DNA from: a virus
Taxonomy: Duplodnaviria > Caudoviricetes
IMG/VR virus record: IMGVR_UViG_3300017747_002190
Location: 1-54,501 of that record
Length of the DNA: 54,501 bases
Direction: 5' to 3' (one strand)
Shown here: piece after piece, positions 14,957 to 54,501 of the stretch
Position numbering within the stretch: the stretch's first letter is position 1
Layout of the letters: each line of letters opens with the position of its first letter
Program-made: the position numbers and the translations under genes
The notes under the pieces: model-generated
The model's input: only the letters and a program-made list of their open reading frames with translations
Told to the model about the DNA's origin: nothing
Database searches by the model: none

Positions 14957-14986
14957 GCGCTGAATGCGCAAAGTCTGGAATTGATA

Positions 14987-29123: not shown

Positions 29124-29179
29124 CACCAGATCAAAAAACAAAGTCATCGTGTATGATGCACTCACACAACGAGGCCGAC

Positions 29180-31828: not shown

Positions 31829-32268
31829 TGGACGGCTGGAGAGCGGACGACGGGAGGCACCCTTTCAACGGCTTCGCGCCCGACCGCCGCCTGCTCCAGG
31901 CCATCATCTGCGTGGCGATTGAGGACTGCTGTCGGCCGCCGACGCGGGCTGAGGCGCGGTTCAAGGCCAACCGGCTGAGGGACCAGATCCAGGCGCTGCG
32001 CTGGCTGTTCTGCGACTCGCCGGCCCTGGACTGGTACGCCGAACTGCTGGAGATCTCGGTGTCCGACCTGCGCAGCAGCCTCGTGCGGGCGGCGTATGAG
32101 GACGGCGAGGGGTCAGCGTTTCGGCCTGATCAGCGCAGGGTGTTTCGTGTGCGGTATCAGTGGGCGAAGAGCGCCGGACTCTTCAATGAGCCGTACGACG
32201 TTTTTGCAGAGGACAGAGGGGATGACGATGAGGCTGGAGAAGACGACGGATCCGAACGATGCGATTGA
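31828..32268 (+). CDS. Hypothetical protein
   Basis: LLQAIICVAIED...ALRWLF; TGATG coupling. Confidence 0.6.
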   Translation: MDGWRADDGRHPFNGFAPDRRLLQAIICVAIEDCCRPPTRAEARFKANRLRDQIQALRWLFCDSPALDWYAELLEISVSDLRSSLVRAAYEDGEGSAFRPDQRRVFRVRYQWAKSAGLFNEPYDVFAEDRGDDDEAGEDDGSERCD

Positions 32269-32575
32269 GTACATTTTCCGCCACGGCAAAAAGTACGCTC
32301 AGGCAAAAGCCGATAGGATCTTCCTGGAGGAGTACCGGAAGAGCAAAAAAGCCATCCTCATGAAGGAGGCCGAGGTCTACGGGAATCGCACCGCCGCCGC
32401 TCAGGAGCGCGAGGCGTATGCGCACGACGACTACGTCGAGCTCTTGAAGGGCTTGCAGCAGGCTGTGGCGATCGAGGAGGAGCTTCGGTGGGGGCTGGTA
32501 GCTGCGCAGGCCAGGATCGACGTCTGGCGCAGCCAGGAGGCGTCTGCGCGGCAGGAAGTCAAGGCCGTCCTATGA
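32222..32575 (+). CDS. Conserved helical phage protein
   Basis: YAQAKADRIFLEEYRKSKKAILM...AQEREAYAH...RIDVWRSQEAS. Confidence 0.7.
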   Translation: MTMRLEKTTDPNDAIEYIFRHGKKYAQAKADRIFLEEYRKSKKAILMKEAEVYGNRTAAAQEREAYAHDDYVELLKGLQQAVAIEEELRWGLVAAQARIDVWRSQEASARQEVKAVL

Positions 32576-37635: not shown

Positions 37636-38109
37636 ATGGGACGCCCCACCACCTACAGACCAGAGATCGCAGCCAAGATCTGCAGCCGCCTCTCCAACGG
37701 AGAACCGCTGTCCACCATCTGCAAAGCAGAAGGCATCGCCGTCTCCACGGTGTATGAGTGGCTGAACCGCGAGCCGTCTTTCTCGGAGGCTTACGCGCGC
37801 GCTCGGGAGGATCAGGCGGACACGCTGGCGGCCGAGATCACGGCGCTGTCTGATGAGCCGCCGCGGCTGATCGAGGACGAGAAGGGCGTGGCCCGGGTTG
37901 ATTCCGCTTGGGTGCAGTGGCAGAAGAACCGGGTCGACGCCCGCAAGTGGGTGGCGGCCAAGCTCAAGCCGAAGAGCTACGGCGATCGAGTCCAGGTGGC
38001 TGGCGACGCCGATGCGCCGCTGAAACTCGACGCTGAGGTCAACGCTGAGAAGCTCTTCAAGACCATCCTTGAGCACGCCCAACTGACGCGGCAGGCCGCC
38101 GGCTCATAA
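37636..38109 (+). CDS. terS: Terminase small subunit
   Basis: GRPTTY...ICSRLSNGEPLSTIC...STVYEWL...YARARE...DARKW...KLKPKSYGD. Confidence 0.85.
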   Translation: MGRPTTYRPEIAAKICSRLSNGEPLSTICKAEGIAVSTVYEWLNREPSFSEAYARAREDQADTLAAEITALSDEPPRLIEDEKGVARVDSAWVQWQKNRVDARKWVAAKLKPKSYGDRVQVAGDADAPLKLDAEVNAEKLFKTILEHAQLTRQAAGS

Positions 38110-38476: not shown

Positions 38477-38682
38477 CCGACGACGAGATCGCCCAGTTCA
38501 TGGGCTGGAGCCGGGAGACGACGGCCAGGATGTCAGGCGACCCCGAGTCGTTCGTCGGGCGCACGCGCAGGCTCGTAGACGAGGCTCAGAGGCGCGAGCG
38601 CGAGCGCTGGGAGGGTGCCCTACGGTCGGAGTCCAGGACGCCGCCCTGCGCCCTCCTGAAGGCCTGCGGTGGACCTCGCTGA
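38473..38682 (+). CDS. Hypothetical protein
   Basis: GTGA coupling; MTDDEIAQFMGWSRET. Confidence 0.5.
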   Translation: MTDDEIAQFMGWSRETTARMSGDPESFVGRTRRLVDEAQRRERERWEGALRSESRTPPCALLKACGGPR

Positions 38683-40093
38683 GTCGCTGGAGGCGCCAGA
38701 CGTACAGGCGGCGCTGAAGGCCCTGCCGCCGGAGAAGCGGCTGGCGTACCTCTGGCGGTTGCGGTGGCTGCAGACGGCGCATGCTCATCAGGTGCTGCCG
38801 TCGGGGGACTGGTGGTCGGTCTGGCTGATGCTGGCAGGCCGGGGCGCCGGCAAGACCCGGACGGCCGCCGAGCAGATCGGCTGGTGGGCCTGGGAGAACC
38901 CGGGCACGCGCTGGCTGGTGGCCGCCCCGACGTCGTCTGACGTGCGGGGGACGTGCTTCGAGGGCGACTCGGGGCTGATGGCCGTCATCCCGGCGCCGCT
39001 GATCGCTGACTACAACAAGGCGCTGCACGAGCTCCGGCTGACCAACGGCAGCCTGATCAAGGGCATCCCTGCCTCAGAGCCCGAGCGCTTCCGGGGCCCG
39101 CAGTTTCACGGGGCGTGGTGCGACGAGCTCGCCGCCTGGGACTACCTGCAGGAGTCGTGGGACCAGATCCAGTTCGGCGTGCGCCTGGGGGCCAAGACCA
39201 GGACGGTCATCACGACGACGCCGAAGCCCAAGGACCTGATCATCGAACTGCTGGGCCGGGAGGGCGACGACGTCGTGGTCACCCGGGCGTCGACGTATGC
39301 CAACCTGGGCAACCTGAGCGATAACTTCCGCCGTCAGATCATGCAGTACGAGGGCACGACGCTCGGCCGCCAGGAGATTCACGCCGAGATCATCGACCCC
39401 GAGGAGGGCGGCATCGTCAAGCGGGACAGCTTCAAGCTGTGGCCGGCGGCGAAGGCCTTCCCGAAGTTCGAGTACATCCTGCAGAGCTACGACTGCGCGA
39501 CGTCCGAGAAGACCCAGAACGACCCGACGGCGTCGAGCACCTGGGGCGTGTTCAAGCCGGAAGACGGGCCGATGAGCGCGATGCTGATCGACTGCTGGCA
39601 GGACCGGCTGCAGTACCCTGACCTGCGGCCGAAGGTGGTCGACGAGTACGAGACGGTATTCGAGTCGGGCACGGACGGCCGGGATCGCAAGCGGGTCGAC
39701 CTGATCCTGATTGAAGACAAGTCTGCGGGCATCTCGCTGATCCAGGACTTGCAGCGGGCGCATCTGCCGGTGAGGGCGTACAACCCCGGGAAGGCGGACA
39801 AGGTGCAGCGGCTGAACATCGTGTCGCACATCATTGCGCGGGGCCGGGTGTGGATTCCTGAGTCGACGCAGCGGCCTGGGTATGTGCGAGACTGGGCGGA
39901 GCCGCTGGTGTCGCAGGTGTGTGCATTCCCGCAGACGACGCACGATGACCTTGTTGATACGCTAACGCAGGCGCTGCGATTCCTGCGCGATTCTGGGTGG
40001 CTGGAGGTTGATCCTCCGCCGCAGGATGATTGGGACGAGGACGACTACGCAGACACTGGTCGGCCGAAGAGGGAGAATCCGTATGCCGCGTGA
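38669..40093 (+). CDS. terL: Terminase large subunit
   Basis: Walker A AGRGAGKT, Walker B AWCDE, TTTP motif III; nuclease motifs SYDCA, IEDKSAG and HDDLVD. Confidence 0.95.
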   Translation: MDLAESLEAPDVQAALKALPPEKRLAYLWRLRWLQTAHAHQVLPSGDWWSVWLMLAGRGAGKTRTAAEQIGWWAWENPGTRWLVAAPTSSDVRGTCFEGDSGLMAVIPAPLIADYNKALHELRLTNGSLIKGIPASEPERFRGPQFHGAWCDELAAWDYLQESWDQIQFGVRLGAKTRTVITTTPKPKDLIIELLGREGDDVVVTRASTYANLGNLSDNFRRQIMQYEGTTLGRQEIHAEIIDPEEGGIVKRDSFKLWPAAKAFPKFEYILQSYDCATSEKTQNDPTASSTWGVFKPEDGPMSAMLIDCWQDRLQYPDLRPKVVDEYETVFESGTDGRDRKRVDLILIEDKSAGISLIQDLQRAHLPVRAYNPGKADKVQRLNIVSHIIARGRVWIPESTQRPGYVRDWAEPLVSQVCAFPQTTHDDLVDTLTQALRFLRDSGWLEVDPPPQDDWDEDDYADTGRPKRENPYAA

Positions 40094-40253
40094 GTCGCCG
40101 GTGGTGGCCGTGTTGGAGCGGCACGAGATGCTGGACAGGGAGGTGGAGGTGGTGGAACATCTGCCTACGCCGCAGTGCTGGTGTTTCCCGAGGCTGGAGT
40201 TTGTGGACCCGGAGACTGGCAACGAGGTGTGGATTCACCACGAGCCGCATTAG
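40083..40253 (+). CDS. Small His/Cys protein
   Basis: EHLPTPQCWCFP...GNEVWIHH; GGAG SD. Confidence 0.6.
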   Translation: MPRESPVVAVLERHEMLDREVEVVEHLPTPQCWCFPRLEFVDPETGNEVWIHHEPH

Positions 40254-40261
40254 GGGTGACG

Positions 40262-43200
40262 ATGGACTTGATGGACGACGAACTGCGCCGGGTGCTGTCT
40301 GGGTCGGTTGATGCCCCGACGGACTCGATGGCGAGAGAGCTTGCCCGCCTGCGAGTGCGCGATCGTGGTCCGACGGCGACGGAGAGGGCTGCGGCGTCGC
40401 AGCCGTCGTTCAGGATGCCGAGCTCTGGCCGGCGGCGTCCGGAGCAGCGTGGCGGCGGTGAGGCGCTGGAGACCCTGGGGTCGGCGATTGCTGGCAGTGT
40501 GCCTGCTGGGCTGGCTGGTGCGGCGGTGCTGCCTTTCCAGGGGCCTGAAGGGGCCGCCAAGACGATCAATCGGGTGCAGGACTACCTGACCATTGACCCG
40601 CAGACAGAGGGCGGCGTACGGGCTCTGAGGGGCATTGCCGGGGCACTGTCGCCATTGGGTGCGCCGGCCCAGGCTGCCGGTGATGTCACGCTGAGGGCGA
40701 CGGGCTCTCCGCTGCTGGCCACCGGTGCGGAGTTGCTGGCTGACCCTCTGAACCTGCTGGGGATCGGTGCTACTGCCAAGCCTGTTGCGCGTGCGGCTGC
40801 GGCTGGTGCCCGGCAGGCTGGGAAGGCGGCGAAGGCCACCGGGCAGAGCCTGGGCCCGAAGGCGGCGGAGATGGCCGAGGCGTACATGCGCCGGTCTGGC
40901 ATGACGCCGGAGATCACGACGTACCACGGGACGCCGCACACCTTCCCTGCTGAGCCCGGGCTGCCGCTGGGCCGGTTCCGCGCCGAGAAGATCGGCAGCG
41001 GTGAGGGCGCTCAGGCGTATGGGCATGGCATATATGTGGCCGAAACTCCTGATGTCGCAAAACAATATAGAAAAGAATTGGCTACAGACGTCAAAATTGA
41101 CGGCCAACCTTTTATGGTTGGCGGAAAGAAAATATCCACAACTGGCAACAGAACAATTGATGATTTTTTGACTTGGCACGTTGGGGATGTGGAAGAGGCA
41201 ATAAAAGCTGCGGAACGAATGGGATTTAATGAATACATACCAAAATTAGAAAACCTTAAGGGCCGTATTGAGAAAGTTCAGGGCGGTTCCTTCTACACCG
41301 TCGACCTCCCCGACCCAATGGTCGACCGCATGCTGGATTGGGACAAGCCGGTCAAAGAGCAGTCTCAGCAAGTACAGAAAATCATTCAGCAGCTTGTGTC
41401 CCAAGAAGTTGGGCAAGAAAAGGCTGCAGAACTGATGTTGCGTGATTCATTTACTGGGCAAAATGCCATGTTGCATTTGCCCGCAAAGTCTTCTATCGAA
41501 GATTCTCAAGTGTTGCGGCGTGCTGGCATCCCGGGCATCAAGTACCTAGACGAGGGCTCCAGAGGCGCTGGAGAGGGCACGCGCAACTTTGTCGTGTTCC
41601 CGGGCGAAGAGGACAAGCTGACCATCCTGCAGCGCAATGACGAGAAGCTGCCAACGAAGAAGGCCGATGGTGGCCTGATTGGAGAAACCATGAGCTACAC
41701 CACTGCGGCCGACACCATTGCTGACAAGCTGATGCGCCAGGGCATGGATCCTGACCAAGCGTTCATGACGGCGCTGCGGATGTCTGACGCGCGGATGAAG
41801 GCTGGCGGTGCTGTGCTGATGGCGGGCGGCGGAGATGCGGAGCGTGAGTTGACGCTCCAGGCCCGCAACCGCAATCTTGCGGCGCTGGACCGCGGTCTTG
41901 CCCCGAGGGCTCGCAAGACCTGGGACGGCCCGATGATTGACCGTCCCATTGTGAACGGCAAGGCGCTGGTGAGCGCTGAGGAGCTCGCTGACTTCCGCCG
42001 CCGGTTCGGCGAGAAGATGACGCTGCGCGACCTGCTGAACGCTGACAAGGGACGTGGCCCGTCTGGGGCTATGCCGGCCGCCAGAGGCGCTCAGGGCGCG
42101 AATGTGGCGCCCAGGGGCCCGCTTATCCGTCCTGATGAGGCTGCAACGCTGCCGCCTGTGGGGCTGTCGGACATCCCTGGCTTGGTCATGCGTGGCATGG
42201 CAGAAGGGGCAGAGCGCGTGCCGGCCGGGCGTGGCGCTGGGGCGGCGTTTGTCGGCGCTGGGGCGCCGCGTGCGGCGATGGCGGCCAAGACGCTGCGTGA
42301 TCATCCGTCGATCACTCCTGCGCAACGTCAGATGCTCAAGGAGATGGAGGACTACATCAGCGGGCTGAACCAAGCCGATCGGCCGGCGGTGGACCCGAAG
42401 ATCCGTGCGCTGGAGGAGCGGCTTGAGCCCCCAATGGCGGGCGGCGGGGCGGCGAGGAAGCTGACCGCGCGTGCGGCGGCCAGGGCTGAGGCAAGGCTTG
42501 CCGAGAAGGCGGCGAAGGAAGCGGCTGAGAGGGCGGCGAAGCAGGCGGCGATCGACGCAAGAACTCCGACTGAGCGGGCCGTGGTTGAGAAGTTCGGGCA
42601 GAAGCAGGAGCAGGAAGCCGCTCGGGCGAAGAAGGTGGAGCAGATCAGTCAGGCGGATGCCCCGCAGCGGGACGTCAAGCCTGCCGGCCGGCGCGTCAAG
42701 GTTGCGCCTGACGTGTACCGCGTCATGGCTGACACGCAAGGCGACGCAGCCGTGCTGCAGGCGGCCAGGGCCGGGCAGCACCTGAAGCCCACCCCGCAGG
42801 GCTACGTTGGTGCGCCTCGCACGGTGACCAACCCGCAGGCGCTTGGCGGCATGCGAAGGGCCATGGACAAAGACTTCGCGGACGCGGTGGAGGCTGTTCG
42901 ACTTGCGGATCCGGAGCGGCTCGGGACGTGGTACGACCGGGCCAAGCAAGGGATCGCCGAGAGCGCTGAACCGTACCAGTTGCCTCGCACACTGGAGCAG
43001 CATGGCGTCTACTCTGCTGGCGTCAGCCCTGAGTCAGAGTTGGGGTTCGCGCTCAAGCACCTGAACAGCCGAGCGGCCGGTGAGCCGGCGATGGCGTACC
43101 GGGGCGCCCCAATGCGCAACCTGGACGAGGCCGTCGCTCAGAACCGACCAGCGAACATGGGGTTCAAGATCGGCGAGTACATGAACAAGAACGACCCGCG

Positions 43201-44596
43201 CATCCCCAACGAGGGGCTGTTCGGCGTCAATGACTTCCGGCGGGCGCAGGGCATGGGATATACCGACCCTGCCGGCAATCCTTGGAAGGCGGGCGTGTCC
43301 GAGACCATGCACCCCTTCATGGACGCCGAGACCGCGCTGCAGGTGGATCGAGCCAACAGGGGCGCCATCGGCGGCCGTACTGATTGGGCCGGCCCGCACA
43401 TCCAAGAGGTCCCGTGGGTCTATGGCAAGGGTCAGGATCTGTACAGCCGCGGGAAGAGTGGACGGTTCGGCGGCGATGAGCTTGAAGGCATCAAGAGATC
43501 GTTGGTGGAAGCCAACAACACGGCACGCGACTACATGTACAAGCATGCGGCTTCGGCGACGCACGAGGCTGTTCCTGGCGCGTCGCTTGGGCATGTGCCG
43601 CAGGTGCTGAGCATGACCCCGGAGGAGAAGCTCGCCTATGGCAACGTCGGACGGTGGGACCGGCCGGCACCGGAGATGGAACTGAGCGACCTGCCGGGAG
43701 TCGGCGCCGGGAACCGGGACGTGCTGTACGGGGCGCTGGGGTATCGTCAGCTTCCTTCCCGGCAGGCCGAGGGGCTGTACATCAACAAGCTGGGGCAGGT
43801 TGAAACCAACCCCATGACCATTGCAAGGCCGTTGATGGATTTCCCCACCGGCGGAGGCGGGCTGATGGCCCCGGAGTCTCGCAAGGTTGCCGACACGCTG
43901 GAGCAGTTCCGAGCGTTCATGGACGCGCAAGAGGCCGGGGCGTACAACCTGCCGAACACCATGAGCGCCGTCAAGAACAAGAACTCGCTCCTCTTGGACA
44001 GCAGGAACCTGAACCCTGACAAGCTGGGCGATCCGTCTGCCGGCGTCATCCCGACGTCCGACCAGTTGGCCAGACTCAACGCCGCCATGGAGGGAACCGG
44101 CTTTGGCGTGTCCGCCACCAACCGCGGCGTCGTCGTCTTCCCGTATGACCCGACCATGGACGCCAAAGAGGCGGCCAAGATTCTGAGGAAGAAGCAGGGT
44201 GAACTGACGGCCATTTACCCGTCTGATCCGCAGAAGTCTCTGACCACCATGGGCTATGTGCCCGGCATTGGCAAGCGCAGTGCGGAGGGCCCGCTGTCGA
44301 CCGTTCCGTTCAGTGGAGAGGCCACCGGCGACTTGCTCCAGGCGTTCTCTGAACTGAACCCGGCCGTCGCGCAGAACCTCAGCGAGTCTGAATTCGTGCG
44401 CCAGATCATTCGAGACAAGGCACTGCGAGACGCGAAGCTGGGCGGCACGCGCCGCGACATCCAAGAGTCCCGCAGGTTCTTCAGCGAGGCGGATTGGCCG
44501 AAGGCGGTTGAGTTGATCCGCAAGGGCATGAGCACTGCTGCGGCGCTTGCCGCGCTGGGCTACAGCGCCAGTTCAATGGCCGAGGAAGGCCGGTGA
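40262..44596 (+). CDS. Large polyvalent protein: hydrophobic N-terminus, ADP-ribosyltransferase-like domain and putative HhH-glycosylase-like domain
   Basis: YHGTPHTF...KIGSGEGAQAYGHGIYVAE...GIPGIKYLD...NFVVF (ART-PolyVal-like); WYDRA...SAGVSP...KIGEY...NDFRRAQ...QEVPW. Confidence 0.72.
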   Translation: MDLMDDELRRVLSGSVDAPTDSMARELARLRVRDRGPTATERAAASQPSFRMPSSGRRRPEQRGGGEALETLGSAIAGSVPAGLAGAAVLPFQGPEGAAKTINRVQDYLTIDPQTEGGVRALRGIAGALSPLGAPAQAAGDVTLRATGSPLLATGAELLADPLNLLGIGATAKPVARAAAAGARQAGKAAKATGQSLGPKAAEMAEAYMRRSGMTPEITTYHGTPHTFPAEPGLPLGRFRAEKIGSGEGAQAYGHGIYVAETPDVAKQYRKELATDVKIDGQPFMVGGKKISTTGNRTIDDFLTWHVGDVEEAIKAAERMGFNEYIPKLENLKGRIEKVQGGSFYTVDLPDPMVDRMLDWDKPVKEQSQQVQKIIQQLVSQEVGQEKAAELMLRDSFTGQNAMLHLPAKSSIEDSQVLRRAGIPGIKYLDEGSRGAGEGTRNFVVFPGEEDKLTILQRNDEKLPTKKADGGLIGETMSYTTAADTIADKLMRQGMDPDQAFMTALRMSDARMKAGGAVLMAGGGDAERELTLQARNRNLAALDRGLAPRARKTWDGPMIDRPIVNGKALVSAEELADFRRRFGEKMTLRDLLNADKGRGPSGAMPAARGAQGANVAPRGPLIRPDEAATLPPVGLSDIPGLVMRGMAEGAERVPAGRGAGAAFVGAGAPRAAMAAKTLRDHPSITPAQRQMLKEMEDYISGLNQADRPAVDPKIRALEERLEPPMAGGGAARKLTARAAARAEARLAEKAAKEAAERAAKQAAIDARTPTERAVVEKFGQKQEQEAARAKKVEQISQADAPQRDVKPAGRRVKVAPDVYRVMADTQGDAAVLQAARAGQHLKPTPQGYVGAPRTVTNPQALGGMRRAMDKDFADAVEAVRLADPERLGTWYDRAKQGIAESAEPYQLPRTLEQHGVYSAGVSPESELGFALKHLNSRAAGEPAMAYRGAPMRNLDEAVAQNRPANMGFKIGEYMNKNDPRIPNEGLFGVNDFRRAQGMGYTDPAGNPWKAGVSETMHPFMDAETALQVDRANRGAIGGRTDWAGPHIQEVPWVYGKGQDLYSRGKSGRFGGDELEGIKRSLVEANNTARDYMYKHAASATHEAVPGASLGHVPQVLSMTPEEKLAYGNVGRWDRPAPEMELSDLPGVGAGNRDVLYGALGYRQLPSRQAEGLYINKLGQVETNPMTIARPLMDFPTGGGGLMAPESRKVADTLEQFRAFMDAQEAGAYNLPNTMSAVKNKNSLLLDSRNLNPDKLGDPSAGVIPTSDQLARLNAAMEGTGFGVSATNRGVVVFPYDPTMDAKEAAKILRKKQGELTAIYPSDPQKSLTTMGYVPGIGKRSAEGPLSTVPFSGEATGDLLQAFSELNPAVAQNLSESEFVRQIIRDKALRDAKLGGTRRDIQESRRFFSEADWPKAVELIRKGMSTAAALAALGYSASSMAEEGR

Positions 44597-44860: not shown

Positions 44861-47410
44861 ATGGCAACTGAGTTCCCGATCGACCCAGAGTTCAACCGCT
44901 TCGTGGAGGGCATGCCCGACGACGCCGATGGCGAGACGCCTGGGGTGGAGGTGGACCTTGAACTGTCCGAGTCGGACATCCAGGAGCTTCCTGACGGCTC
45001 TGCGGTGGTGACGCTGGACACCAACGGGCCGATGGACAACGAGGACTTCTACCAGAACCTCGCCGACAGCGACGTGCTGGACTCCATCGACCTGAACTCG
45101 ATGGCCCTGAAGTACATCCAACTGGTGGAGAAGGACCGCGAAGCCCGCAAGCAGCGGGACAAGCAGTACGAGGACGGCATCCGCCGCACTGGGATGGGCA
45201 ACGACGCCCCTGGTGGCGCCTCGTTTGCGGGTGCCAGCAAGGTCGTACACCCGGTGATGGCCGAGGCGTGCATCGACTTTGCGTCCCGCGCCATCCGCGA
45301 ACTGTTCCCGGCTGACGGGCCGACGCGCACGAAGATCCTCGGTGACGTCAATCAGGAGAAAACTGACATCGCGGAGCGCAAGCGCGACTTCATGAATTGG
45401 CAGTTGACCGAGCAAATCGAGGAATTCCGCGACGAGCAGGAGCAATTGTTCACTCAATTGCCTCTTGGTGGATCGCAATACCTCAAACTCTGGTACGACG
45501 AGGACAAAAAGCGTCCTTGTGCCGAGTTTTTGCCGATCGACAACGTGCTTTTGCCCTTTGCGGCGTCGAATTTCTACACTGCGCCGCGCGCAACGGAGGT
45601 TCATGACCTCTCAAGGTATGAATTTGAGCGCCGTGTGGCCTCAAAACTGTACCGAGATGGCAGTTTTATCCGTGCCACGATGGACCCGGAGCAGACTGCG
45701 GCCCAAAAGGCCAACGACAAGATCGAAGGACGGTCGGAAAACGACAACGAAGACGGTGTTCGTCGCGTCTACCACATCTACACATGGCTGGAACTCGAAA
45801 ACGACAGGTTTTCGAAGGGAGAGATGGCTCCCTACGTCCTGATGATCGACGACTTGGAGTCTGAGGTCATCGGGCTGTACCGAAACTGGGAGGAAGGCGA
45901 CGAAACGATGACCAAACTCGACTGGGTGGTCGAGTTCAAGTTCATCCCGTGGCGCGGCGCGTACGCCGTGGGCCTGCCGCACCTCATTGGAGGCCTCTCA
46001 GCGGCCCTTACAGGCGCTCTGAGGGCCTTGCTGGACTCTGCGCACATCAACAACGCTGCGACGCTCCTGAAGCTCAAGGGGGCGAAGGTTTCGGGTCAGT
46101 CCCAGCAGGTCGAAGTGACCCAGGTGGCCGAAATTGAGGCCGCGCCTGGGGTTGACGACGTCCGCAAGCTGGCGATGCCGATGCCGTTCAACCCGCCGAG
46201 CCCGGTGCTGTTCCAGTTGCTGGGCTGGCTCACCGGTGCGGCCAAGGGGGTGGTGACGACGGCCGAGGAGAAGATCGCCGACGTCAATGCGAACACGCCG
46301 GTGGGCACCACCCAGGCTCTGATCGAGCAGGGCGCGGCGGTGTTCTCGGCGATCCATGCTCGGCTGCACGAATCGCAGTCTCGCGTGCTCAAGGTGCTGA
46401 GCCGGATCAACCGGTGGTACTTGGACGACATGCGCCGCGGCGAGGTGGTCGAAGACCTGGAGGTTCGCCGGGAGGACTTTGCCCGGGTGACGGACGTGAT
46501 CCCGGTGTCGGACCCGCACATCTTCAGCGAGACGCAGCGGATGGCCCAGACCCAGTCGGTCATGGCCATGATGGAGAAGCATCCGGACCTGTTCAACCGC
46601 CGGGCGGTGGTCATGCGCTTCCTGAAGCAGATCAAGGTGCCGGGCGTCAACGAACTGATGACGGACACGCCTGCGCCTGAGAAGCTGGACGCGGCCAACG
46701 AGAACGTGGCGATGACGATCGGTCAGTCGGCGTTCGCGTACCTGGAGCAGGACCACTTCTCGCACATCGTGACGCATCTGAAGTACGCCTCGGACCCGGT
46801 GTTCGGTGGCAACCCGATGATCGCGCCCAACGTGCTGCCGAAGATGATGGAGCACATCAAGCAGCACTTCGCGCTGTGGTATCTGGGCCGCATGAACGGG
46901 TATGTGACGCGGTCGCTGGGTCGCAAGGCTGATGACTATGCCGAGGCAGAGGATCCGGCCGAGATCGACAAGCTGTACGGTGCGGCGGCCGGTCATGTGG
47001 CGCTGGACGCTGAGGAGACGCTTGCCAAGACGATGCCGGTGATCCAGCAGATGGTCAAGACGCTGGAGCAGTTCAAGCCGAAGCCTGAGTTGACGCCGGA
47101 CGGTCAGGTGCTGCTGCAGACGAGCATGGCTGAGACGCAGCGCAGGCAGGCGCGTGATCAGGCCGAGATGCAACTGAAAGCGGCTGACAATCAGGCCAAG
47201 CTGCAACTGGCGGCCCAGAAGCAGATGGACGACAAGGACCTCGCCATTGAGGAACTGCAGTTGAAGCTGGCCATCGCTCAGGGTGACCAGGAAACGAAGG
47301 AGCGCATCGAGACGGCCCGTTTGATGCGGGATGCGGCCCGGTTGAGGCATGACCAGGACAAGACCGTCATTGACTACTCGATGAAAGGAGCACCAAGTGG
47401 CTACCAGTGA
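44861..47410 (+). CDS. Portal protein
   Basis: 849 aa after TerL; FAGASKVVHPVMAEACIDF, LPLGGS, FIPWRGAYAVGLPHL and PVGTTQALIEQG; Gln/Ala coiled-coil C-terminus. Confidence 0.88.
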   Translation: MATEFPIDPEFNRFVEGMPDDADGETPGVEVDLELSESDIQELPDGSAVVTLDTNGPMDNEDFYQNLADSDVLDSIDLNSMALKYIQLVEKDREARKQRDKQYEDGIRRTGMGNDAPGGASFAGASKVVHPVMAEACIDFASRAIRELFPADGPTRTKILGDVNQEKTDIAERKRDFMNWQLTEQIEEFRDEQEQLFTQLPLGGSQYLKLWYDEDKKRPCAEFLPIDNVLLPFAASNFYTAPRATEVHDLSRYEFERRVASKLYRDGSFIRATMDPEQTAAQKANDKIEGRSENDNEDGVRRVYHIYTWLELENDRFSKGEMAPYVLMIDDLESEVIGLYRNWEEGDETMTKLDWVVEFKFIPWRGAYAVGLPHLIGGLSAALTGALRALLDSAHINNAATLLKLKGAKVSGQSQQVEVTQVAEIEAAPGVDDVRKLAMPMPFNPPSPVLFQLLGWLTGAAKGVVTTAEEKIADVNANTPVGTTQALIEQGAAVFSAIHARLHESQSRVLKVLSRINRWYLDDMRRGEVVEDLEVRREDFARVTDVIPVSDPHIFSETQRMAQTQSVMAMMEKHPDLFNRRAVVMRFLKQIKVPGVNELMTDTPAPEKLDAANENVAMTIGQSAFAYLEQDHFSHIVTHLKYASDPVFGGNPMIAPNVLPKMMEHIKQHFALWYLGRMNGYVTRSLGRKADDYAEAEDPAEIDKLYGAAAGHVALDAEETLAKTMPVIQQMVKTLEQFKPKPELTPDGQVLLQTSMAETQRRQARDQAEMQLKAADNQAKLQLAAQKQMDDKDLAIEELQLKLAIAQGDQETKERIETARLMRDAARLRHDQDKTVIDYSMKGAPSGYQ

Positions 47411-47558
47411 TCAAGAGCAGAAGAGCGTTCTTGTGCCCCAGCACAAGCGCATGGCGATGGGCGCCAAGGTCGACGGCCAGTCGATGCAAGCGAAGGGTGA
47501 GTCCGGCAATGGCAAGCCGGCGCAAGGAGGGCTGTCGCAGGCGAGCAAGAAGAAGTGA
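47397..47558 (+). CDS. 53-aa basic protein; below the ORF-track cutoff
   Basis: AAAGGAG SD; MATSDQEQKSVLVPQHKRMAMGAKVDG...KPAQGGLSQASKKK; GTGA overlap with the next gene. Confidence 0.65.
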   Translation: MATSDQEQKSVLVPQHKRMAMGAKVDGQSMQAKGESGNGKPAQGGLSQASKKK

Positions 47559-47752
47559 GGACGATCGGAGACCTGATCGGCGCGATTACGTCTAGGCAGG
47601 CTGAGATAGCCTCGTCCCTCGCTGTGGGAAATGCAGCGAACTGGGAGTCGTACCAGCGCATGATCGGACAGTACGCCGGGCTCGGAGAAGCCCTGGCGAT
47701 CCTGAACAAACTGATGGAAGACGACGATGAGCGAGATGGGCGTGGCGCTTGA
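47555..47752 (+). CDS. Small conserved head-module protein
   Basis: SLAVGNAANWESYQRMIGQYAGL. Confidence 0.7.
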   Translation: MRTIGDLIGAITSRQAEIASSLAVGNAANWESYQRMIGQYAGLGEALAILNKLMEDDDERDGRGA

Positions 47753-48161
47753 CAGCGCCGAGATGGCTTGGGCATTCCCGAGCGTGGACCCTGGCGCGAA
47801 ACCCCTTGGTGGCCGCATCCTGGTGCAACTGCGGCGAGCCAAGAAGAAGGCGACGAAGTCGGGAATCATCTTGGTCGCGGAGACCAAGGAGACCGAGAAG
47901 TGGCAGAACATGGTGGCCAAGGTCATTGAGATCGGGCCGCTGGCGTTCCGCAAGCGGGATTCGATGGAGCCCTGGCCGGAGGGAAGCTGGTGTGAAGCCG
48001 GCGACTACATCCGTGTGCCCAAGTGGGGCGGCGACCGTTGGGAGGTGAAGGTTCCGGGCGAGGATGACCTCGAAGACCCGGCGCTGTTCATGATCCTGAA
48101 CGACCACGAGGTGATCGCCAAGGTCACCGGCAACCCTCTTGAAATGAAGGCGTTCCTCTGA
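47727..48161 (+). CDS. groES: GroES-like co-chaperonin (Cpn10)
   Basis: KPLGGRILVQ...TKSGIILV...AKVIEIGP...GDYIRVPKWGG...ILNDHEVIA. Confidence 0.85.
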   Translation: MSEMGVALDSAEMAWAFPSVDPGAKPLGGRILVQLRRAKKKATKSGIILVAETKETEKWQNMVAKVIEIGPLAFRKRDSMEPWPEGSWCEAGDYIRVPKWGGDRWEVKVPGEDDLEDPALFMILNDHEVIAKVTGNPLEMKAFL

Positions 48162-49099
48162 TGAGCACCGAGAAGCAAGACGAACAGATCGACGTGGTCG
48201 AGGAGAAGGACGGCAGCGCTGTCGTCGAACTCCCCGGTGACGTCGCACCGGCAGACTCCCAGGAAACGGCCCAGGAGGCCGCAGGAGACGATGGCGGTGA
48301 CGTGGACAGGCCAGGGGACTCCGACGCCGTTCGGGAGGCTCGTAGGGCCCGCAGGCGTGCGAAGAAGGACCTCGTGCGCCGCACCAGTGAAGAGAAGGAC
48401 CAGCGCCTGCAGATGCTGCAGCGCCAGAACCAGGAGCTCATGGAGCGCCTGTCTGTGGTTGAGCGCAAGACGCACTCTTCGGACCTTGCTCGCCTGGACA
48501 AGGCGATCGAGGAGGAGGAGCTTCGCTACCGCTACGCTGCGCAGAAGATGAAGGACGCCACGTCGGCATCTGACGGGGAGGCGTTCGGCCGTGCGCAGGA
48601 GATGTGGTACGAGGCCCGCCGCAAGATCGAGGCGATGAAGAGCCTCAAGGACCGTGCTGCCCAGGCTACCAAGCAGCAGGGTGCGGTCAATCCGCAGGTG
48701 ACTCGGTTGGCGAATTCCTGGATGGAGCGCAACGACTGGTATGACCCGTCTGGCAGTGACGAGGACACGGCGATCGCCAAGGTGATTGACCGCAAACTCA
48801 CTGAAGACGGTTGGGATCCTGCGTCTCAGGACTACTGGGAGGAGCTCGACCGGCGTTTGCAAAAGCGTCTGCCGCATCGCTATACTGACTCTGTTGATGA
48901 CCATTCTCGAAGGAGTAGGCCCCGCAGCGTGGTAACTGGATCGGGACGCGAGGTCGGTGGCGGCGCAAGCCGTTCGACTTTCGTGCTGTCACCTGAACAG
49001 GTGAGGGCGATGAAAGACGCCGGACTGTGGGATGACCCCCACAAACGGGCCAACATGATCAAGCGGTACGCGCAAGAAGCACGAAGCAGGAGCAACTGA
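48161..49099 (+). CDS. Capsid scaffolding protein
   Basis: Acidic N-terminus, long coiled coil, WMERNDWY and LSPEQVRAMKDAG C-terminus; upstream of the capsid gene. Confidence 0.7.
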   Translation: MSTEKQDEQIDVVEEKDGSAVVELPGDVAPADSQETAQEAAGDDGGDVDRPGDSDAVREARRARRRAKKDLVRRTSEEKDQRLQMLQRQNQELMERLSVVERKTHSSDLARLDKAIEEEELRYRYAAQKMKDATSASDGEAFGRAQEMWYEARRKIEAMKSLKDRAAQATKQQGAVNPQVTRLANSWMERNDWYDPSGSDEDTAIAKVIDRKLTEDGWDPASQDYWEELDRRLQKRLPHRYTDSVDDHSRRSRPRSVVTGSGREVGGGASRSTFVLSPEQVRAMKDAGLWDDPHKRANMIKRYAQEARSRSN

Positions 49100-49101
49100 A
49101 G

Positions 49102-49644
49102 ATGGACGGTCGTCTCAAGAAATCTCTGTCCGCTGGCGGACGCGAAACTCGCGCAAGCGAGGACGTTGTACGGCAGGGCCCGGAGGAACAGTTTCACTCG
49201 GCACAGGAACGTCGCAGGATGTGGAGTGACGAGTGGACACAATCAGCGCTGCCGAAGGTCCCGGAAATGCCGGGATGGCACCTTTGCTGGCTATCGACAA
49301 CCAACAGCTACGACAGCATCGACAAGCGGATCCGACTCGGCTACGTTCCCGTTCGCGCGGATGAGTTGCCTGGGTTCGAGAACTACAAGGTCAAGGCTGG
49401 CGAAGACGTCGGTTTCATCGCATGCAACGAGATGCGCCTGTACAAGCTCCCCATGGAGATTTACCAGGACGTCATGTTGCAGATGCACCATGAGAGGCCC
49501 ATGGAAGAGGCGGACAAGATCCGCGTCCAAGTGGAGAACCTGCAGGGTGCGCGTGACAGCCGGGGCAAGAGCCTCGGTCAGGTCGAAGGTGAAGGCTTCG
49601 GCGATATGGACCGAAACGTCAAGACCCCGATGTTCATCGGGTGA
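49102..49644 (+). CDS. Conserved head-module protein
   Basis: PGWHLCWLS...RIRLGYVPVRADE...GFIACNEMRLYKLP. Confidence 0.7.
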   Translation: MDGRLKKSLSAGGRETRASEDVVRQGPEEQFHSAQERRRMWSDEWTQSALPKVPEMPGWHLCWLSTTNSYDSIDKRIRLGYVPVRADELPGFENYKVKAGEDVGFIACNEMRLYKLPMEIYQDVMLQMHHERPMEEADKIRVQVENLQGARDSRGKSLGQVEGEGFGDMDRNVKTPMFIG

Positions 49645-50297: not shown

Positions 50298-51212
50298 ATG
50301 GCAGCTCCGATGAGAAGTACCGACTTTCGTTCAATCGTCGAACCGATCCTGAACGAATGCTTCGATGGCGTCTACGACCAGCGCACCGACGAGTGGTCGC
50401 GGGTCTTCCGCGAACAGCAGGGCATCCCCCGCAACTACCACGAAGAGCCCGTGCTCTACGGGTTCGGCGCGGCGCCGCAACTGCCGGACGGCACGCCTGT
50501 GTCGTACCAGCAGGGTGGTGTGCTGTTCCTGAAGCGCTACGTCTACAACGTGTACGGTCTGGCGTTCGCGCTGACCAAGGTGCTCGTTGAGGACGGCGAC
50601 CACATCCGCATCGGGCAGGTGTATGCGCGTCACCTCGCGCAGAGCCTGATTGAGACGAAGGAGACGCTGTCGGCCAACGTGCTGAACCGCGCCTTCAACT
50701 CGTCCTACCCGGGCGGCGACGGCGTGCAACTGAACAGCAACGCCCACCCCATCGTCAACGGGACGTTCAGCAACCTGCTCTCTACGGCCGCGAACCTCTC
50801 GCAGACGTCGCTGGAGCAGATGCTGATCCAGATCCGTCAGGCGGTGGACAACAACGGCAAGAAGATCCGTCTGGTGCCTCGCCAATTGGTGGTGGCCCCG
50901 GGCAACGTCTTCCAGGCCGAGGTGCTGCTGAAGTCGGTTCTGCGTGCCGGCAACGCCAACAACGACATCAACCCGATCAAGTCGATCGGTCTGCTGGACG
51001 AGGGCGCGGCGGTTCTGTCGCGTCTGACCTCGGCGACCGCATGGTGGGTCCAGACCGACGCGCCGGAGGGCATGAAGCTCCTGATGCGCCGGAAGCTGGA
51101 GAAGACCATGGAAGGCGACTTTGAGACGGACTCGATGCGCTACAAGGCGACCGAGCGCTACGACGTCGGCTTCACCGATCCGCGGGCCATGTACGGCACG
51201 CCGGGCGTCTGA
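50298..51212 (+). CDS. Major capsid protein
   Basis: 304 aa; AAGGAGG SD; GLAFALTKVLVED, ANVLNRAF, GGDGV, LSQTSLEQML, DFETDSMRYKATERY and DPRAMYG; followed by a hairpin. Confidence 0.9.
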   Translation: MAAPMRSTDFRSIVEPILNECFDGVYDQRTDEWSRVFREQQGIPRNYHEEPVLYGFGAAPQLPDGTPVSYQQGGVLFLKRYVYNVYGLAFALTKVLVEDGDHIRIGQVYARHLAQSLIETKETLSANVLNRAFNSSYPGGDGVQLNSNAHPIVNGTFSNLLSTAANLSQTSLEQMLIQIRQAVDNNGKKIRLVPRQLVVAPGNVFQAEVLLKSVLRAGNANNDINPIKSIGLLDEGAAVLSRLTSATAWWVQTDAPEGMKLLMRRKLEKTMEGDFETDSMRYKATERYDVGFTDPRAMYGTPGV

Positions 51213-51945: not shown

Positions 51946-52914
51946 ATGGGTCAATTCAAGCCGATGGTGAAGATGGAGACGACGGAGCCGTCCGTCGAGC
52001 TCAAGCTCAAGAAGGGCGGCGAGGTCAAGATGCAGATGGGCGGCGCCGCCCCGATGCGTCCGATGCCGGGCATGCCGGCTCGCGGTGGCTCCATGGCCGC
52101 CATGAGCCCTGCCAAGCCGTCTCTGGCGGCTCGCCGCCGGGCGATGCAGGCCATGCCTGCCGCTGCGGCTCCTGCGGGCCCTGTGGGGCGTGCTGGCCGC
52201 ATGATGGCCGAGGGTGGCGAGTCCAAATCGGCCCACAAGGCCGAGATGAAGGCCATCAAGGGCCTGGGCGAGAAGATGTCCGCTCACGCTGCCAAGCCCG
52301 CCAGCAAGGCCCACAAGGGCCTGAAGACGGGCGGTGTGGCCAATGCCCAGGGCGGCTACGCTGCGGGCGGCAAGGTGACCACCAAGGTCGCTACGGCGCA
52401 TCCTGACAACTCCCCGGCCAAGACCGGCGACGTGAAGCTGGGCAACGGCGGCGGGTACGCCACCGGTGGCGTGGCCAAGGCGAACGGCGGCGGCTACAAG
52501 ACGGGTGGTTCCGCAAAAAAAGCCTACGCCACGGGGGGTCGTGTTGACTCTGGTGCGCCCGTGGCGATGCCTCAAGGCCGCAAGCTGCCTTCCAAGCCGG
52601 TGAGCATCGACCGGCTGTCCGGCACGTTCAAGGACGGCGGAAAGGTGGATGCCTACGACAAGATCAAGTCGATGGACATCCCGGCAGAGGCCAAGTCGAG
52701 GCTGCAGCAGGCTGAGAACGAGAAGGCTTACAAGGCCTTTGAGGAGCAGCAGAAGCGCGGCGAGCCGTCGATCAGCGATATGCTCTCGGGGATCCCGAGT
52801 GCGGTGAAGCGCATGTTCAACCGCGACAAGGCGCCTGGATCTGTCACCAAGACGGAGAAGGCTGTCACGGTGGAGCCTGTGCCGAAGAAGCGCGGCGGTC
52901 TAGCGAAGTGCTGA
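51946..52914 (+). CDS. Basic low-complexity protein with ~11 repeats of a Phi-[AKQ]-x-G-G motif (candidate internal head protein)
   Basis: LKKGG, MQMGG, MAEGG, LKTGG, YAAGG, YATGG, KANGG, YKTGG, YATGG, FKDGG, KKRGG. Confidence 0.75.
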   Translation: MGQFKPMVKMETTEPSVELKLKKGGEVKMQMGGAAPMRPMPGMPARGGSMAAMSPAKPSLAARRRAMQAMPAAAAPAGPVGRAGRMMAEGGESKSAHKAEMKAIKGLGEKMSAHAAKPASKAHKGLKTGGVANAQGGYAAGGKVTTKVATAHPDNSPAKTGDVKLGNGGGYATGGVAKANGGGYKTGGSAKKAYATGGRVDSGAPVAMPQGRKLPSKPVSIDRLSGTFKDGGKVDAYDKIKSMDIPAEAKSRLQQAENEKAYKAFEEQQKRGEPSISDMLSGIPSAVKRMFNRDKAPGSVTKTEKAVTVEPVPKKRGGLAKC

Positions 52915-52920
52915 AACAAG

Positions 52921-52947
52921 GTGGGGGCTTCGGCCCCCGCTTTCCTT
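52921..52947 (+). terminator. Rho-independent terminator-like hairpin
   Basis: GTGGGGGC-TTCG-GCCCCCGC-TTTCCTT. Confidence 0.7.
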
Positions 52948-52958
52948 GAGGATTGAAA

Positions 52959-53714
52959 ATGGGAACATATTCTTCCGCGACCCGTCAGGGAGCGTATGAG
53001 CCGTTTGAATTGCAAGTGTCCCGTGGGCAGGTTGACGGGCACTCAGTGGTGAACATTTTTGGCAATACTACCGCTCTCGGTAGCACTGCTTTTGGCCCTC
53101 TGTGGGAGGGTTTGACTGGCAGCGGCGGCGCTTACGCTTACCCAGCCTCTGCTGTCGTGATGACACTTGCAAGCTCTTCCGCTTCTGACACAGCCGTCAC
53201 CATTCGCGTGGAAGGACTTGGCGCTGGGTTTGTCGAGCAATCTGAGGATGTCGTGTTGAACGGCACGACTGGAGTCAACACCACCAAAACTTTCCTGCGA
53301 ATCAACCGCATGGAGACTTGGTCTGGTAACGCTGTGGGTGCTGTATCCGCCACGAATGGCGGCACTTTGTACGCAAGGATTACGGCTGGCAACGGCGTGA
53401 CTCAGATGTCCCTGTACACCGTGCCTGCTGGCTACACGTTCTACCAAACCTACTATCAGGCCGACACCAACACGTCCGCGACGAGTGGTGCTTACGTCAG
53501 GTTGCGTACATATCAAGTTCACCGGGAAAGAGTCGGTGAGGTTGTGACGGCTGAGTTGCAAACTGCGTTTGTGCAACAACTGACGATTCCTCTTCAGTTC
53601 CCCGTGTCTTACCCAGAAAAGCACGACATCCAATGGCAACTGCTTGGTGCTGGTGGTGCTGGCGCGGTGGCCAATGTCTATGTTGGCGGTATTCTGATCA
53701 AGAACCCGGACTGA
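52959..53714 (+). CDS. Virion protein
   Basis: FELQVSRGQVDGHSVVNIFG...EDVVLNGTT...FLRINRM...SLYTVPAGYTFY...PEKHDI. Confidence 0.65.
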   Translation: MGTYSSATRQGAYEPFELQVSRGQVDGHSVVNIFGNTTALGSTAFGPLWEGLTGSGGAYAYPASAVVMTLASSSASDTAVTIRVEGLGAGFVEQSEDVVLNGTTGVNTTKTFLRINRMETWSGNAVGAVSATNGGTLYARITAGNGVTQMSLYTVPAGYTFYQTYYQADTNTSATSGAYVRLRTYQVHRERVGEVVTAELQTAFVQQLTIPLQFPVSYPEKHDIQWQLLGAGGAGAVANVYVGGILIKNPD

Positions 53715-53716
53715 TC

Positions 53717-53899
53717 ATGCCCGCCAAGTCGCAAGCCCAGTTCCGTCTGATGAAGGCGGCCGAGAAAGATCCCAAAGTGGCCAAGAAGGTCGGCATCAAG
53801 CCGAGCGTGGCTGCCGAGTTCACGTCTGGGAACGTCAAGGGGCGGGCGTACAAGAAGCTGCCGGAGGCCAAGAAGGCCGGCGGCGGGGCGTGCTGGTGA
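53717..53899 (+). CDS. Small basic late protein
   Basis: MPAKSQAQFRLMKAA...KVGIKPSVAAEF...KKAGGGACW. Confidence 0.7.
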   Translation: MPAKSQAQFRLMKAAEKDPKVAKKVGIKPSVAAEFTSGNVKGRAYKKLPEAKKAGGGACW

Positions 53900-53902
53900 G
53901 CC

Positions 53903-54151
53903 ATGGCCAAGAACGTCAGTCTGGCCATTGGACGTGGTGAGAAGCTCTCGGCTGAGCGCGGAGCGGGCTTGACCGCGAAGGGCCGGGAGAAGTACAACCG
54001 CGAGACCGGGTCGAACCTCAAGGCTCCGCAGCCCGAGGGTGGGCCGCGGCGTGATTCATTCTGCGCCCGTATGGGCCCGGTGGCCCGCAAGAGCGAGCCT
54101 GGAAGCCGGTCTCGTGCGTCCATGAAGCGCTGGAACTGTCCGGGGTGGTGA
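53903..54151 (+). CDS. Small basic conserved protein (DUF6321-like)
   Basis: GLTAKGREKYNRETGSNLKAP...RRDSFCARM...KRWNC. Confidence 0.65.
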   Translation: MAKNVSLAIGRGEKLSAERGAGLTAKGREKYNRETGSNLKAPQPEGGPRRDSFCARMGPVARKSEPGSRSRASMKRWNCPGW

Positions 54152-54501
54152 TGGCGTACTCAGGCACTGTTGGCACGACTCTCGTATCGGTCCAGAAGCT
54201 GATCGACCACGGGGCGCGGCGCTGCGGCAAGCTGGCCGAGGAGTTGACCTCGGAGCAGGTTCAGGCGTCGCGCACGATGCTGTTCTACCTGCTGTCGAAC
54301 CTGATCAACATCGGAATCCAGTATTGGGCGATCAACAAGAAGGTCATCGGCCTGAACGCGAACCAGTACATCTACGACCTGCCTGTGGGCGGCGTGGACG
54401 TGCTGCAGGCGCTGTACCGGCGTATGAACAGGCCGACGCCCAACAGCACTGGCGGGTACTCGTCCAGTGCCGGCGGGGTGGTCGGCAACGCGTTCGACAA
54501 C
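54151..54501 (+). CDS. N-terminal part of the head-tail adaptor-like protein (continues at position 1)
   Basis: MAYSGTVGTTLVSVQKLIDHGARRCGK...NIGIQYWAI...YDLPVGGVDVL; open to the contig end and in frame with 1-846. Confidence 0.75.
   Translation, partial: MAYSGTVGTTLVSVQKLIDHGARRCGKLAEELTSEQVQASRTMLFYLLSNLINIGIQYWAINKKVIGLNANQYIYDLPVGGVDVLQALYRRMNRPTPNSTGGYSSSAGGVVGNAFDN
54379..54501. repeat. Terminal direct repeat, copy 2
   Basis: Identical to 1-123. Confidence 0.97.

Follow-up and report, generated by a model that had tools for sequence, protein, structure and literature searches.

Virion proteins are already known to carry cleavage sites and targeting peptides. Di-Gly protease sites, among them those of the adenovirus protease, pS273R of African swine fever virus, the Ulp, DUB and PLpro enzymes and the leaders of C39 bacteriocins, share the consensus Phi-x-G-G/x (Phi, a hydrophobic residue; the slash marks the cut), and the substrates of the adenoviral protease include basic core proteins. 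Encapsulin cargo-loading peptides and the capsid-targeting sequences of T4 are short and contain Gly, in many cases stand at a protein end, and have an HK97-fold shell or its core as their reader. Here we describe a seven-residue motif, Phi-[A/K]-x-G-G-x-[V/A], in late proteins of a tailed virus represented by IMG/VR record IMGVR_UViG_3300017747_002190 (Caudoviricetes; 54,501 nucleotides, analysed at full length and hereafter called the window). The motif is repeated along a 322-amino-acid (aa) product, the array protein, and also occurs in two very large proteins and one small one.

The nearest likeness lies in the C-terminal modules of tape measure proteins (TMPs). In lambda gpH (about residues 733-790 and the C-terminus), T5 pb2 (about 1128-1150) and the TMPs of Arthrobacter phage Richie, Gordonia phage Lilbeanie and mycobacteriophage Douge, the form Phi-A-x-G-G-x-Phi flanks a Gly-rich stretch and an element reading GE[FYH]V. 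T5 pb2 is described as cut after R1127, between a hydrophobic stretch and a so-called metallopeptidase motif (PMC10038345); in the T5 record this cut reads R/AEGGMMYPGVSYQMGEHGTEVV, the residues next to it being A-E-G-G-M-M. Cleavage of the lambda TMP has been known since the 1970s-80s: about 14 kDa is removed from the Gly-rich region at the C-terminus of gpH, and the account of this step states both site and catalyst to be unknown (PMC12617516). Lambda tail assembly also offers an earlier example of processing directed by glycine, and does so in the very phage that cuts its TMP in a Gly-rich region; gpK may be linked to gpH cleavage. Residues 818-849 of gpH have been modelled in the lambda tail tip on the gpI tripod (PMC10721106, PMC12617516), and this segment runs into the last motif copy of the protein, M-R-D-G-G-L-F-S. 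For the Douge TMP, residues 1658-1699 alone are reported as resolved (PMC13033339), which leaves the internal copies unseen. The window's 1641-aa ejection protein shares this TMP module by sequence, and the array protein shares the motif only. A difference is that the window's phage, judged from its gene set (SU10-type adaptor, nozzle/fibre genes, no tail tube), is short-tailed, a podovirus.

A second likeness is to the polyvalent proteins (Iyer et al. 2017). The window likewise encodes a large mosaic protein beside terminase and portal genes, with homologues that carry ART-PolyVal and other domains. The polyvalent-protein survey predicts packaging, injection and processing, and proposes zincin-like MPTase domains as the processing enzymes (PMC5512222); the words "glycine" and "linker" have no uses in its main text (PMC5512222). 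The window differs in that Pfam searches of its 1473-aa protein showed no MPTase domain and in that the conserved C-terminal domain of this protein has no invariant His.

The array protein and its family

The array protein is rich in Gly, Ala, Lys, Met and Pro and strongly basic (pI 10.2; 56 Lys and Arg vs. 26 Asp and Glu). Under a strict pattern set before any counting, [LMYFIVW][AKQR].GG.[VA], it contains eight copies where 0.08 are expected (2000 composition-preserving shuffles, maximum 2), and its GG dipeptides number 16 against 6.4 by shuffling. A preliminary description of the window had presented this protein as largely a string of the motif; every instance listed there is present.

51946-52914, plus strand: array protein, 322 aa
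52006-52026, 52030-52050, 52321-52341, 52357-52377, plus strand: strict motif copies at aa 21, 29, 126 and 138
52456-52476, 52495-52515, 52525-52545, 52627-52647, plus strand: strict motif copies at aa 171, 184, 194 and 228
52204-52224, plus strand: looser copy, MAEGGES
52885-52911, plus strand: C-terminal motif, KKRGGLAKC, whose last residue is a conserved Cys

Homologues of the array protein are numerous, with 4937 database matches at E ≤ 0.001 among 8000 scored candidates. An exhaustive profile search returned 486 clusters at 50% identity, 186 of them with E ≤ 1e-30, and all clusters with taxonomy are viral. Among 50,697 deposited phage records, only MW202545 carries the family. Searches with the array protein found no Pfam family at E ≤ 0.1, no PHROGs v4 family at E ≤ 0.01 and, by profile against PDB sequences, nothing better than E=0.64; in the Atlas it matched unnamed viral clusters only, and nothing among the named ones.

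The enrichment over composition-matched shuffles extends across this family: 150 representatives carry 3-11 strict copies each, with a mean of 6.4 vs. 0.10 expected. Over the 2072 GG sites of these representatives, position -3 is Y, M, F or L in 64%, position -2 is K or A in 70%, and position +2 is V or A in 47%. An alignment of 18 sequences, reaching down to 62% identity, keeps all major GG pairs, the first 22 residues and the final Cys invariant, while homologues gain and lose cassettes bounded by the motif. The N-terminal 23 residues are conserved in the family at large. The opposite end is also fixed, with GG.{0,4}C at the C-terminus of 119/120 close homologues and 92 of the 150 diverse representatives; many of the remainder end in GG or the motif plus a few residues without Cys, and some of these may be fragments. 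An AlphaFold2 model built on the 18-sequence alignment has a mean predicted local distance difference test (pLDDT) score of 44.6 and three helices of at least nine residues, and every motif stretch scores below 50, so that the array protein is modelled as mostly disordered. By sequence, then, the array protein is a member of a large, abundant, unannotated, virus-only family of near-pure junction segments. Its gene is accessory: of 17 loci bearing the polyvalent-protein domain of the window's type, nine have no array gene within 10 kb.

Motif copies in other late proteins

The other 58 open reading frames (ORFs) of the window together contain four strict copies vs. 2.3 expected, and the count is at least 4 in 60/300 shuffles. 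The window alone therefore does not establish a genome-wide signal, as the preliminary description had called it. The 1473-aa polyvalent protein accounts for three of these copies (p=0.003 before correction for 59 ORFs). The hydrophobic position is missing in three of the peptides listed earlier, KKRGGLA, KKAGGGA and PAQGGL; the last of these does occur where it was placed, but does not fit the pattern and is probably there by chance. The major capsid protein (MCP), portal and TerL of the window contain no motif copy; the preliminary description had not noticed one there either.

47517-47534, plus strand: PAQGGL in a 53-aa ORF (47397-47558)
48284-48304, plus strand: GDDGGDV, a degenerate copy in the scaffold-like protein (48161-49099)

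The signal becomes clear in relatives. Outside the array protein, 22 related loci of at least 17 kb hold 56 strict copies vs. about 12.3 expected (63 vs. 12.63, minus one mis-flagged array ORF with 7 copies and about 0.37 expected); these loci are kin to one another rather than independent samples, and their ORF calls are crude. Copies recur in a large ORF before the portal gene, in the scaffold-like protein near its acidic N-terminal end, and in a small protein after the array. The relatives' counterpart of the scaffold-like GDDGGDV reads MAEGGEA, MADGGDA or MAAGGAA. VAGGGSA in the adaptor, another recurrent match in relatives, looks like part of a fold rather than the motif. Caulobacter phage RW, which is without the array protein, the polyvalent protein and the small proteins, has no enrichment (2 copies vs. 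2.0 expected). What had been proposed as a peptide signal shared by late proteins thus holds at the level of families (56 vs. about 12.3 here, and below 251 vs. 22 and, by position in the protein, 80 vs. 16), not from the window by itself. The copies reported earlier in the 1473-aa protein (four), in the 1641-aa protein (two) and at the end of 53717-53899 (KKAGGGACW) are all in place.

40175-44596, plus strand: mosaic "polyvalent" protein of 1473 aa, encoded between TerL and portal; its database counterpart begins 29 aa downstream
41657-41680, plus strand: KKADGGLI, aa 495
41795-41815, plus strand: MKAGGAV, aa 541
41819-41839, plus strand: MAGGGDA, aa 549
42434-42454, plus strand: MAGGGAA, aa 754

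The window's own 1473-aa protein matches no Pfam or PHROG family. It has 292 homologues at E ≤ 1e-5, some of which carry PF18760 (ART-PolyVal), PF18838, PF14284 or PF23802. At least one strict copy is present in 107/119 of these homologues, for a total of 251 vs. 22 in shuffled sequences. In an alignment of 12 of them, motif copies stand exactly at the points where modules are swapped, and an ART cassette of about 200 aa is flanked on both sides by motif-bearing linkers. The C-terminal domain of the window's protein was found in 0/30 array-bearing loci with enough upstream DNA (as controls for this search, the MCP matched 72 loci and the portal 41), yet large ORFs that occupy the same position without this domain are still motif-bearing. 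In two loci, L036 and L062, the large pre-portal gene is split just after the motif.

19532-19903, plus strand: module at the C-terminus of the ejection protein (1641 aa, gene 14981-19906)
19532-19552, plus strand: FRAGGMV, aa 1518
19559-19579, plus strand: MAQGGTR, aa 1527
19643-19663, plus strand: YRQGDAV, a degenerate copy
19667-19744, plus strand: GDGQSDDIPAMLADGEFV element

The ejection protein has 1568 homologues, and its C-terminal module is strongly conserved. Across 120 homologues, the last 175 aa hold 80 strict copies, whereas all other positions, 175,909 aa in total, hold 16. The module combines motif copies with the TMP-type element G-x-G-x-x-S-D-x-I-P-A-x-L-x-x-G-E-F-V, here G-D-G-Q-S-D-D-I-P-A-M-L-A-D-G-E-F-V; the array protein has the motif only, the GEFV element being missing. 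Translated searches with the module gave E values down to 8e-9 against phage records and 2e-8 against records annotated as tape measure proteins. It matches PHROG TMP families and the annotated TMPs of Arthrobacter, Gordonia and Nitrincola phages, and resembles two repeats in a mycobacteriophage TMP, Douge gp16 (PDB 8zdo chain S, E=4.8e-4). In AlphaFold2 the module scores a pLDDT of 55, with the motif part below 50 and a confident part of 70-81 at about residues 85-135; this confident part, around GEFV, consists of short strands and helices and offers no fold for a structure search. The "DGEFV domain" that had been put forward as a candidate protease is better described as a small tape-measure-type element.

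The motif adjoins a GEFV-type element in 6/6 of the TMP or TMP-like proteins that have one (RW gp066c, Richie, Lilbeanie, Douge, lambda gpH and T5 pb2). The Lilbeanie TMP has four copies, and the RW ejection protein gp066c also ends in the motif (YMDGGRV). The copies of lambda gpH (FATGGFT, YATGGYV, MRDGGLF) lie in its Gly-rich C-terminal region, at 733, at 778 and, for the last, 8-12 residues from the end. A search with just the lambda element finds it in 1013 phage records. Not every TMP has the module, however: HK97 gp16 lacks both element and motif. On sequence evidence, the motif flanks the GE[FYH]V element of true TMPs, including lambda gpH, T5 pb2 and those of actinophages. The "Zn-carboxypeptidase motif" of T5 (pb2 1135-1150), credited with muralytic activity, overlaps a GE-x-G-x-E-V element that occupies the place of GEFV in alignments with other TMPs (lambda gpH 752-762). 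The His is not conserved there, which makes a shared metallopeptidase function of these modules look doubtful. Sensing of TMPs by Avs18 was considered as a connection and dropped, the target being the central helical segment and not the motif (PMC13581612).

53717-53899, plus strand: 60-aa protein; its N-terminal part matches phrog_16759, and it ends in KKAGGGACW (motif 53870-53896)
53903-54151, plus strand: DUF6321 protein of 82 aa, encoded by the 3' half of the split gene

These two halves form a single ORF with the motif at the joint in 13/18 distinct relatives, and the residue at -3 is hydrophobic in 12/13 of the fused proteins. The other 5/18 share the window's split, directly after GG. 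The gene is modular in loci L018, L043 and L066, where two- and three-module versions have the motif at each joint; one inserted module resembles the class of the window's 9525-9914 protein (weak DUF5872 match). Three different small proteins here end in Cys or Cys-x-x-Trp. The gene just upstream encodes a 253-aa phrog_8198 protein (52953-53714, plus strand) with relatives in 28 phage records, mostly T4-like cyanophages, that are sometimes annotated as virion or tail fibre proteins. It appears from these matches to be a mobile structural accessory, and was rejected as a motif-specific partner, being a mobile virion- or fibre-like protein found in cyanomyoviruses too.

By sequence and by model, Phi-[A/K]-x-G-G-x-[V/A] is a conserved, selected and position-specific short linear motif within segments modelled as disordered, and the alignments place it at the bounds of modules in the polyvalent protein, the C-terminal module of the ejection protein and the small two-domain protein. 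The preliminary description knew of no characterised function for it; a description of the motif, of its junction role or of its presence beside the TMP GEFV element was not found in the open-access papers searched.

Possible functions of the motif

We favour, tentatively and with weak commitment, the possibility that the motif is a processing site that separates modules, a reading that is more apt to be wrong than right. It would mark exposed hinges where cleavage frees modules from one another, either while the particle is being assembled or once its proteins have been ejected. The motif-bearing proteins probably leave the virion through the tail, together with the DNA, and the cutting would be the work of a host protease or of a phage protease that escaped recognition. 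On this view the array protein would offer that enzyme many sites, and would either be broken down into small basic peptides or act as a competitor for it. That polyvalent proteins are processed is an earlier proposal (PMC5512222). Several observations are consistent with cutting: the position of the motif at junctions of mosaic proteins, the natural gene fissions at the motif, and the precedents of T5 and lambda; the exposure of the motif regions, with pLDDT below 50 in both AlphaFold2 models; and the occurrence of the phrog_16759-type domain and DUF6321 either fused or apart, with the split at the motif. The motif also resembles the di-Gly sites of other viruses, which likewise have a hydrophobic position ahead of GG and fall where virion precursors are joined. 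Support for the protease site suggested in the preliminary description is indirect, coming from the T5 pb2 cut before AEGG and from gene fissions, and no protease was recognised in the ORFs scanned.

A number of results weigh against processing. The lone mapped cut beside such a motif, that of T5, precedes A-E-G-G (A-x-G-G) with Arg at -3, and follows neither GG nor a hydrophobic residue; the specificity is therefore not a simple match. The motif departs from di-Gly sites in having two residues, not one, between Phi and GG and in its conserved V/A at +2, and no cysteine protease was recognised in the 57/59 window ORFs scanned. A copy 2-9 residues from the C-terminus, as in 119/120 close array homologues, the RW ejection protein and lambda gpH, makes little sense as a cut site; sites 5-10 residues apart in the core of the array would give very small peptides; and the stretches between array motifs are conserved too. 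The search for an enzyme adds to these points. No peptidase family appeared in Pfam scans of 57/59 window ORFs (25930-26094 and 27410-27661 lay outside the scan) or in PHROG scans of late proteins, in agreement with the earlier statement that no protease was recognised, and the same Pfam scans contained no JAB, NlpC/P60 or Ubl family. Neither an MPTase nor another peptidase was seen in the 1473-aa protein or in the Pfam lists of the 120 homologues listed. The polyvalent C-terminal domain was considered as a cryptic protease or reader and rejected as a general reader: it has no invariant His or Cys, 0/30 array loci have the domain, and 8/17 loci with the domain have an array.

Other candidates fared no better. 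The product of 32096-32575 has a weak TGL match (17.3 bits vs. a cut-off of 23.7), but its sequence looks like a coiled coil. Two further genes named earlier as possible proteases, 49102-49644 and 850-1197, match no family and have homologues in RW, which has no array and no enrichment. With no reader found in the genome, the reader, if any, should be a core virion part or a host factor.

A broader version of the idea takes the motif as a junction code used generally by proteins that leave tailed-phage virions by way of the tail (TMPs, podovirus ejection proteins and injected polyvalent cargo), with a conserved reader that either cuts or grips. This is rather unlikely as a whole. The gpH to gpH* cut of lambda would be predicted at or beside F-A-T-G-G (residues 735-739), and the motif-array proteins, in their thousands, would serve as multivalent adaptors or compete for the reader.

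Between cutting and gripping the evidence is nearly even, and docking, in two forms taken jointly, is a close rival to processing that we would still regard as possible rather than probable. In the first form, which taken singly is unlikely but still a serious contender, the motif is an uncut docking peptide that binds a core part of the ejection apparatus or tail channel, perhaps by strand addition, with the array as a multivalent adaptor held by avidity. Extreme C-terminal motifs, awkward for cutting, are natural for docking in the array (119/120), the RW ejection protein and lambda gpH, and in the lambda tail-tip models the gpH C-terminus sits on the gpI tripod, running into the last motif (PMC10721106, PMC12617516). 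The tight tandem spacing and the conserved N-terminal anchor of the array suit avidity, the conserved spacers fit as well, no protease is required, and the motif is found in tail-resident TMPs and podovirus proteins alike. However, a receptor was not identified, and a single tether should do for each protein, whereas the motif stands at nearly every module joint. The lambda contact is described as a coiled coil on gpI and not as a motif-specific pocket, and the internal copies of the Douge TMP are unresolved in the structure as reported (PMC13033339).

A similarly doubtful alternative dispenses with a reader altogether. Here Phi-x-x-G-G-x-V is a minimal turn or hairpin that forms structural hinges in flexible, compactable linkers, and the array is elastic or space-filling. 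Such linkers would suit long proteins travelling through a narrow channel, and the Gly/Met/Pro/Ala-rich composition of the array recalls elastomeric proteins. The modelled disorder of motif regions, their place in linkers of unrelated modules, and the gain and loss of motif-bounded cassettes in arrays all accord with it. A passive linker, however, would not be expected to hold GG invariant, position -3 hydrophobic and position +2 as V/A throughout 486 clusters and in unrelated proteins, and the fixed C-terminal copy is left unexplained. We also hold it improbable, though worth allowing for, that the true explanation was not considered here.

Capsid loading, the second form of docking and one of the two readings offered in the preliminary description, is less probable still. 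The motif would bind the scaffold or the inside of the HK97-fold shell and thereby bring cargo into procapsids, and the array would be a basic internal core protein. The gene does stand in the head block, after those of the MCP and a 227-aa protein; its product is strongly basic (pI 10.2); relatives have one motif copy in their scaffold-like protein; and the MCP is 89-99% conserved in 50 array-bearing loci with a full-length copy. Like encapsulin and T4 peptides, moreover, the motif is a short Gly-containing peptide on otherwise unrelated cargo. Its copies differ from those peptides in being mostly internal, repeated and present in tail-resident TMPs as well. The motif is thus not confined to shell-packaged proteins, as the siphovirus TMP copies show: there it flanks a homologous element in proteins that reside in tails, which weakens inner-capsid docking and makes a purely capsid-interior loading code unlikely. 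RW, further, has an MCP 78% identical to the window's and yet no array, no polyvalent protein and no enrichment, and the array is an accessory gene, missing within 10 kb in the 9/17 loci noted above. A complex prediction with the MCP alignment and array residues 1-60 scored 0.00, below the mark, and returned no answer either way. The earlier interpretation needed widening from the capsid to exit proteins.

The GroES mobile loop reads ..S-A-G-G-I-V-L.., and the phage encodes a Cpn10 homologue (47727-48161), but mimicry of this loop to recruit host GroEL is very improbable, for although some relatives' copies read FQAGGIV, YAKGGLV or FKKGGLV, most are without a hydrophobic triplet after GG (GGEVK, GGSAK, GGRVD), and RW has a GroES-like gene yet no array and no enrichment.

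Genomic context

The first and last 123 nucleotides of the window (1-123 and 54379-54501) are an exact terminal direct repeat, which identifies the window as a circular assembly of about 54,378 bp; its overall G+C content is about 62%. An adaptor-like gene spans the junction of the circle (54145-54501 joined to 1-846).

37636-38109: small terminase, Sf6-type
38669-40093: TerL
44861-47410: portal
47727-48161, plus strand: GroES-like (Cpn10) co-chaperonin (PF00166, E=4e-7; phrog_3188)
48161-49099: scaffold-like protein with an acidic N-terminal part
50298-51212, plus strand: MCP, HK97-type (PF25209), motif-free
52923-52938, plus strand: perfect 6-bp G+C hairpin with a TTCG loop, directly 3' of the array gene

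Two tiny ORFs separate the portal from the GroES-like gene, which is kept in RW (58% identity) and MW202545, and genes for a 180-aa and a 207-aa protein lie between the scaffold-like gene and that of the MCP. After the MCP come the 227-aa protein, the 322-aa array protein, the 253-aa protein and the 60-aa and 82-aa pair (53717-54151); past the junction follow SU10-type adaptor proteins, fibres, lysozyme, the 1641-aa protein (14981-19906) and an SLT protein. The MCP is 89-99% identical across the 50 array-bearing loci in which a full-length copy was recovered. By MCP, the closest record is the uncultured MW202545 (90%), and the closest cultured phages are Caulobacter phages RW, RLK, KcrB and GB2A (78% identity). 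The hairpin at 52923-52938 may, on weak evidence, be a terminator or mRNA-stabilising element that closes the block of MCP, 227-aa and 322-aa genes; the scan scored it on the minus strand only, and its plus-strand T-tail is short.

Several other features of the window and its relatives are recorded here. A leftward early block includes a Tad2-like Thoeris anti-defence domain (27710-28132, minus strand; PF11195, E=1.6e-20). A YdaS-type helix-turn-helix gene (29153-29389, plus strand; PF15943, E=2e-11), followed by two DUF1376 proteins (29386-29700 and 29793-30653, plus strand), looks from its domains like an early regulatory or replication-initiation cluster. The 1355-aa product of 3941-8008 (plus strand) is Gly-rich (247 Gly; 74 GG vs. 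45 expected) and has neither a Pfam match nor a strict motif copy. Its gene, especially 4001-6000, spans a stretch of low G+C (0.52 vs. about 0.62), and may for that reason be a recently acquired fibre or receptor-binding module. In RW, a 501-aa protein, gp085c (L002 10088-11593), is inserted directly after the MCP gene, where the window has its accessory head genes; visual inspection shows repeated features resembling Zn fingers and endonucleases.

Implications

The loading, holding and release of the non-DNA contents of phage particles are poorly understood, especially for polyvalent effectors and TMPs. A seven-residue motif at module joints offers a mutable handle on these steps across protein classes, and predicts where cuts or contacts may lie. 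If the motif were merely a favoured linker, it would still be useful as a warning against reading such peptides as signals. It also defines a very abundant, unannotated protein family that is found in viruses only, and could flag candidate injected proteins in metagenomic phages.

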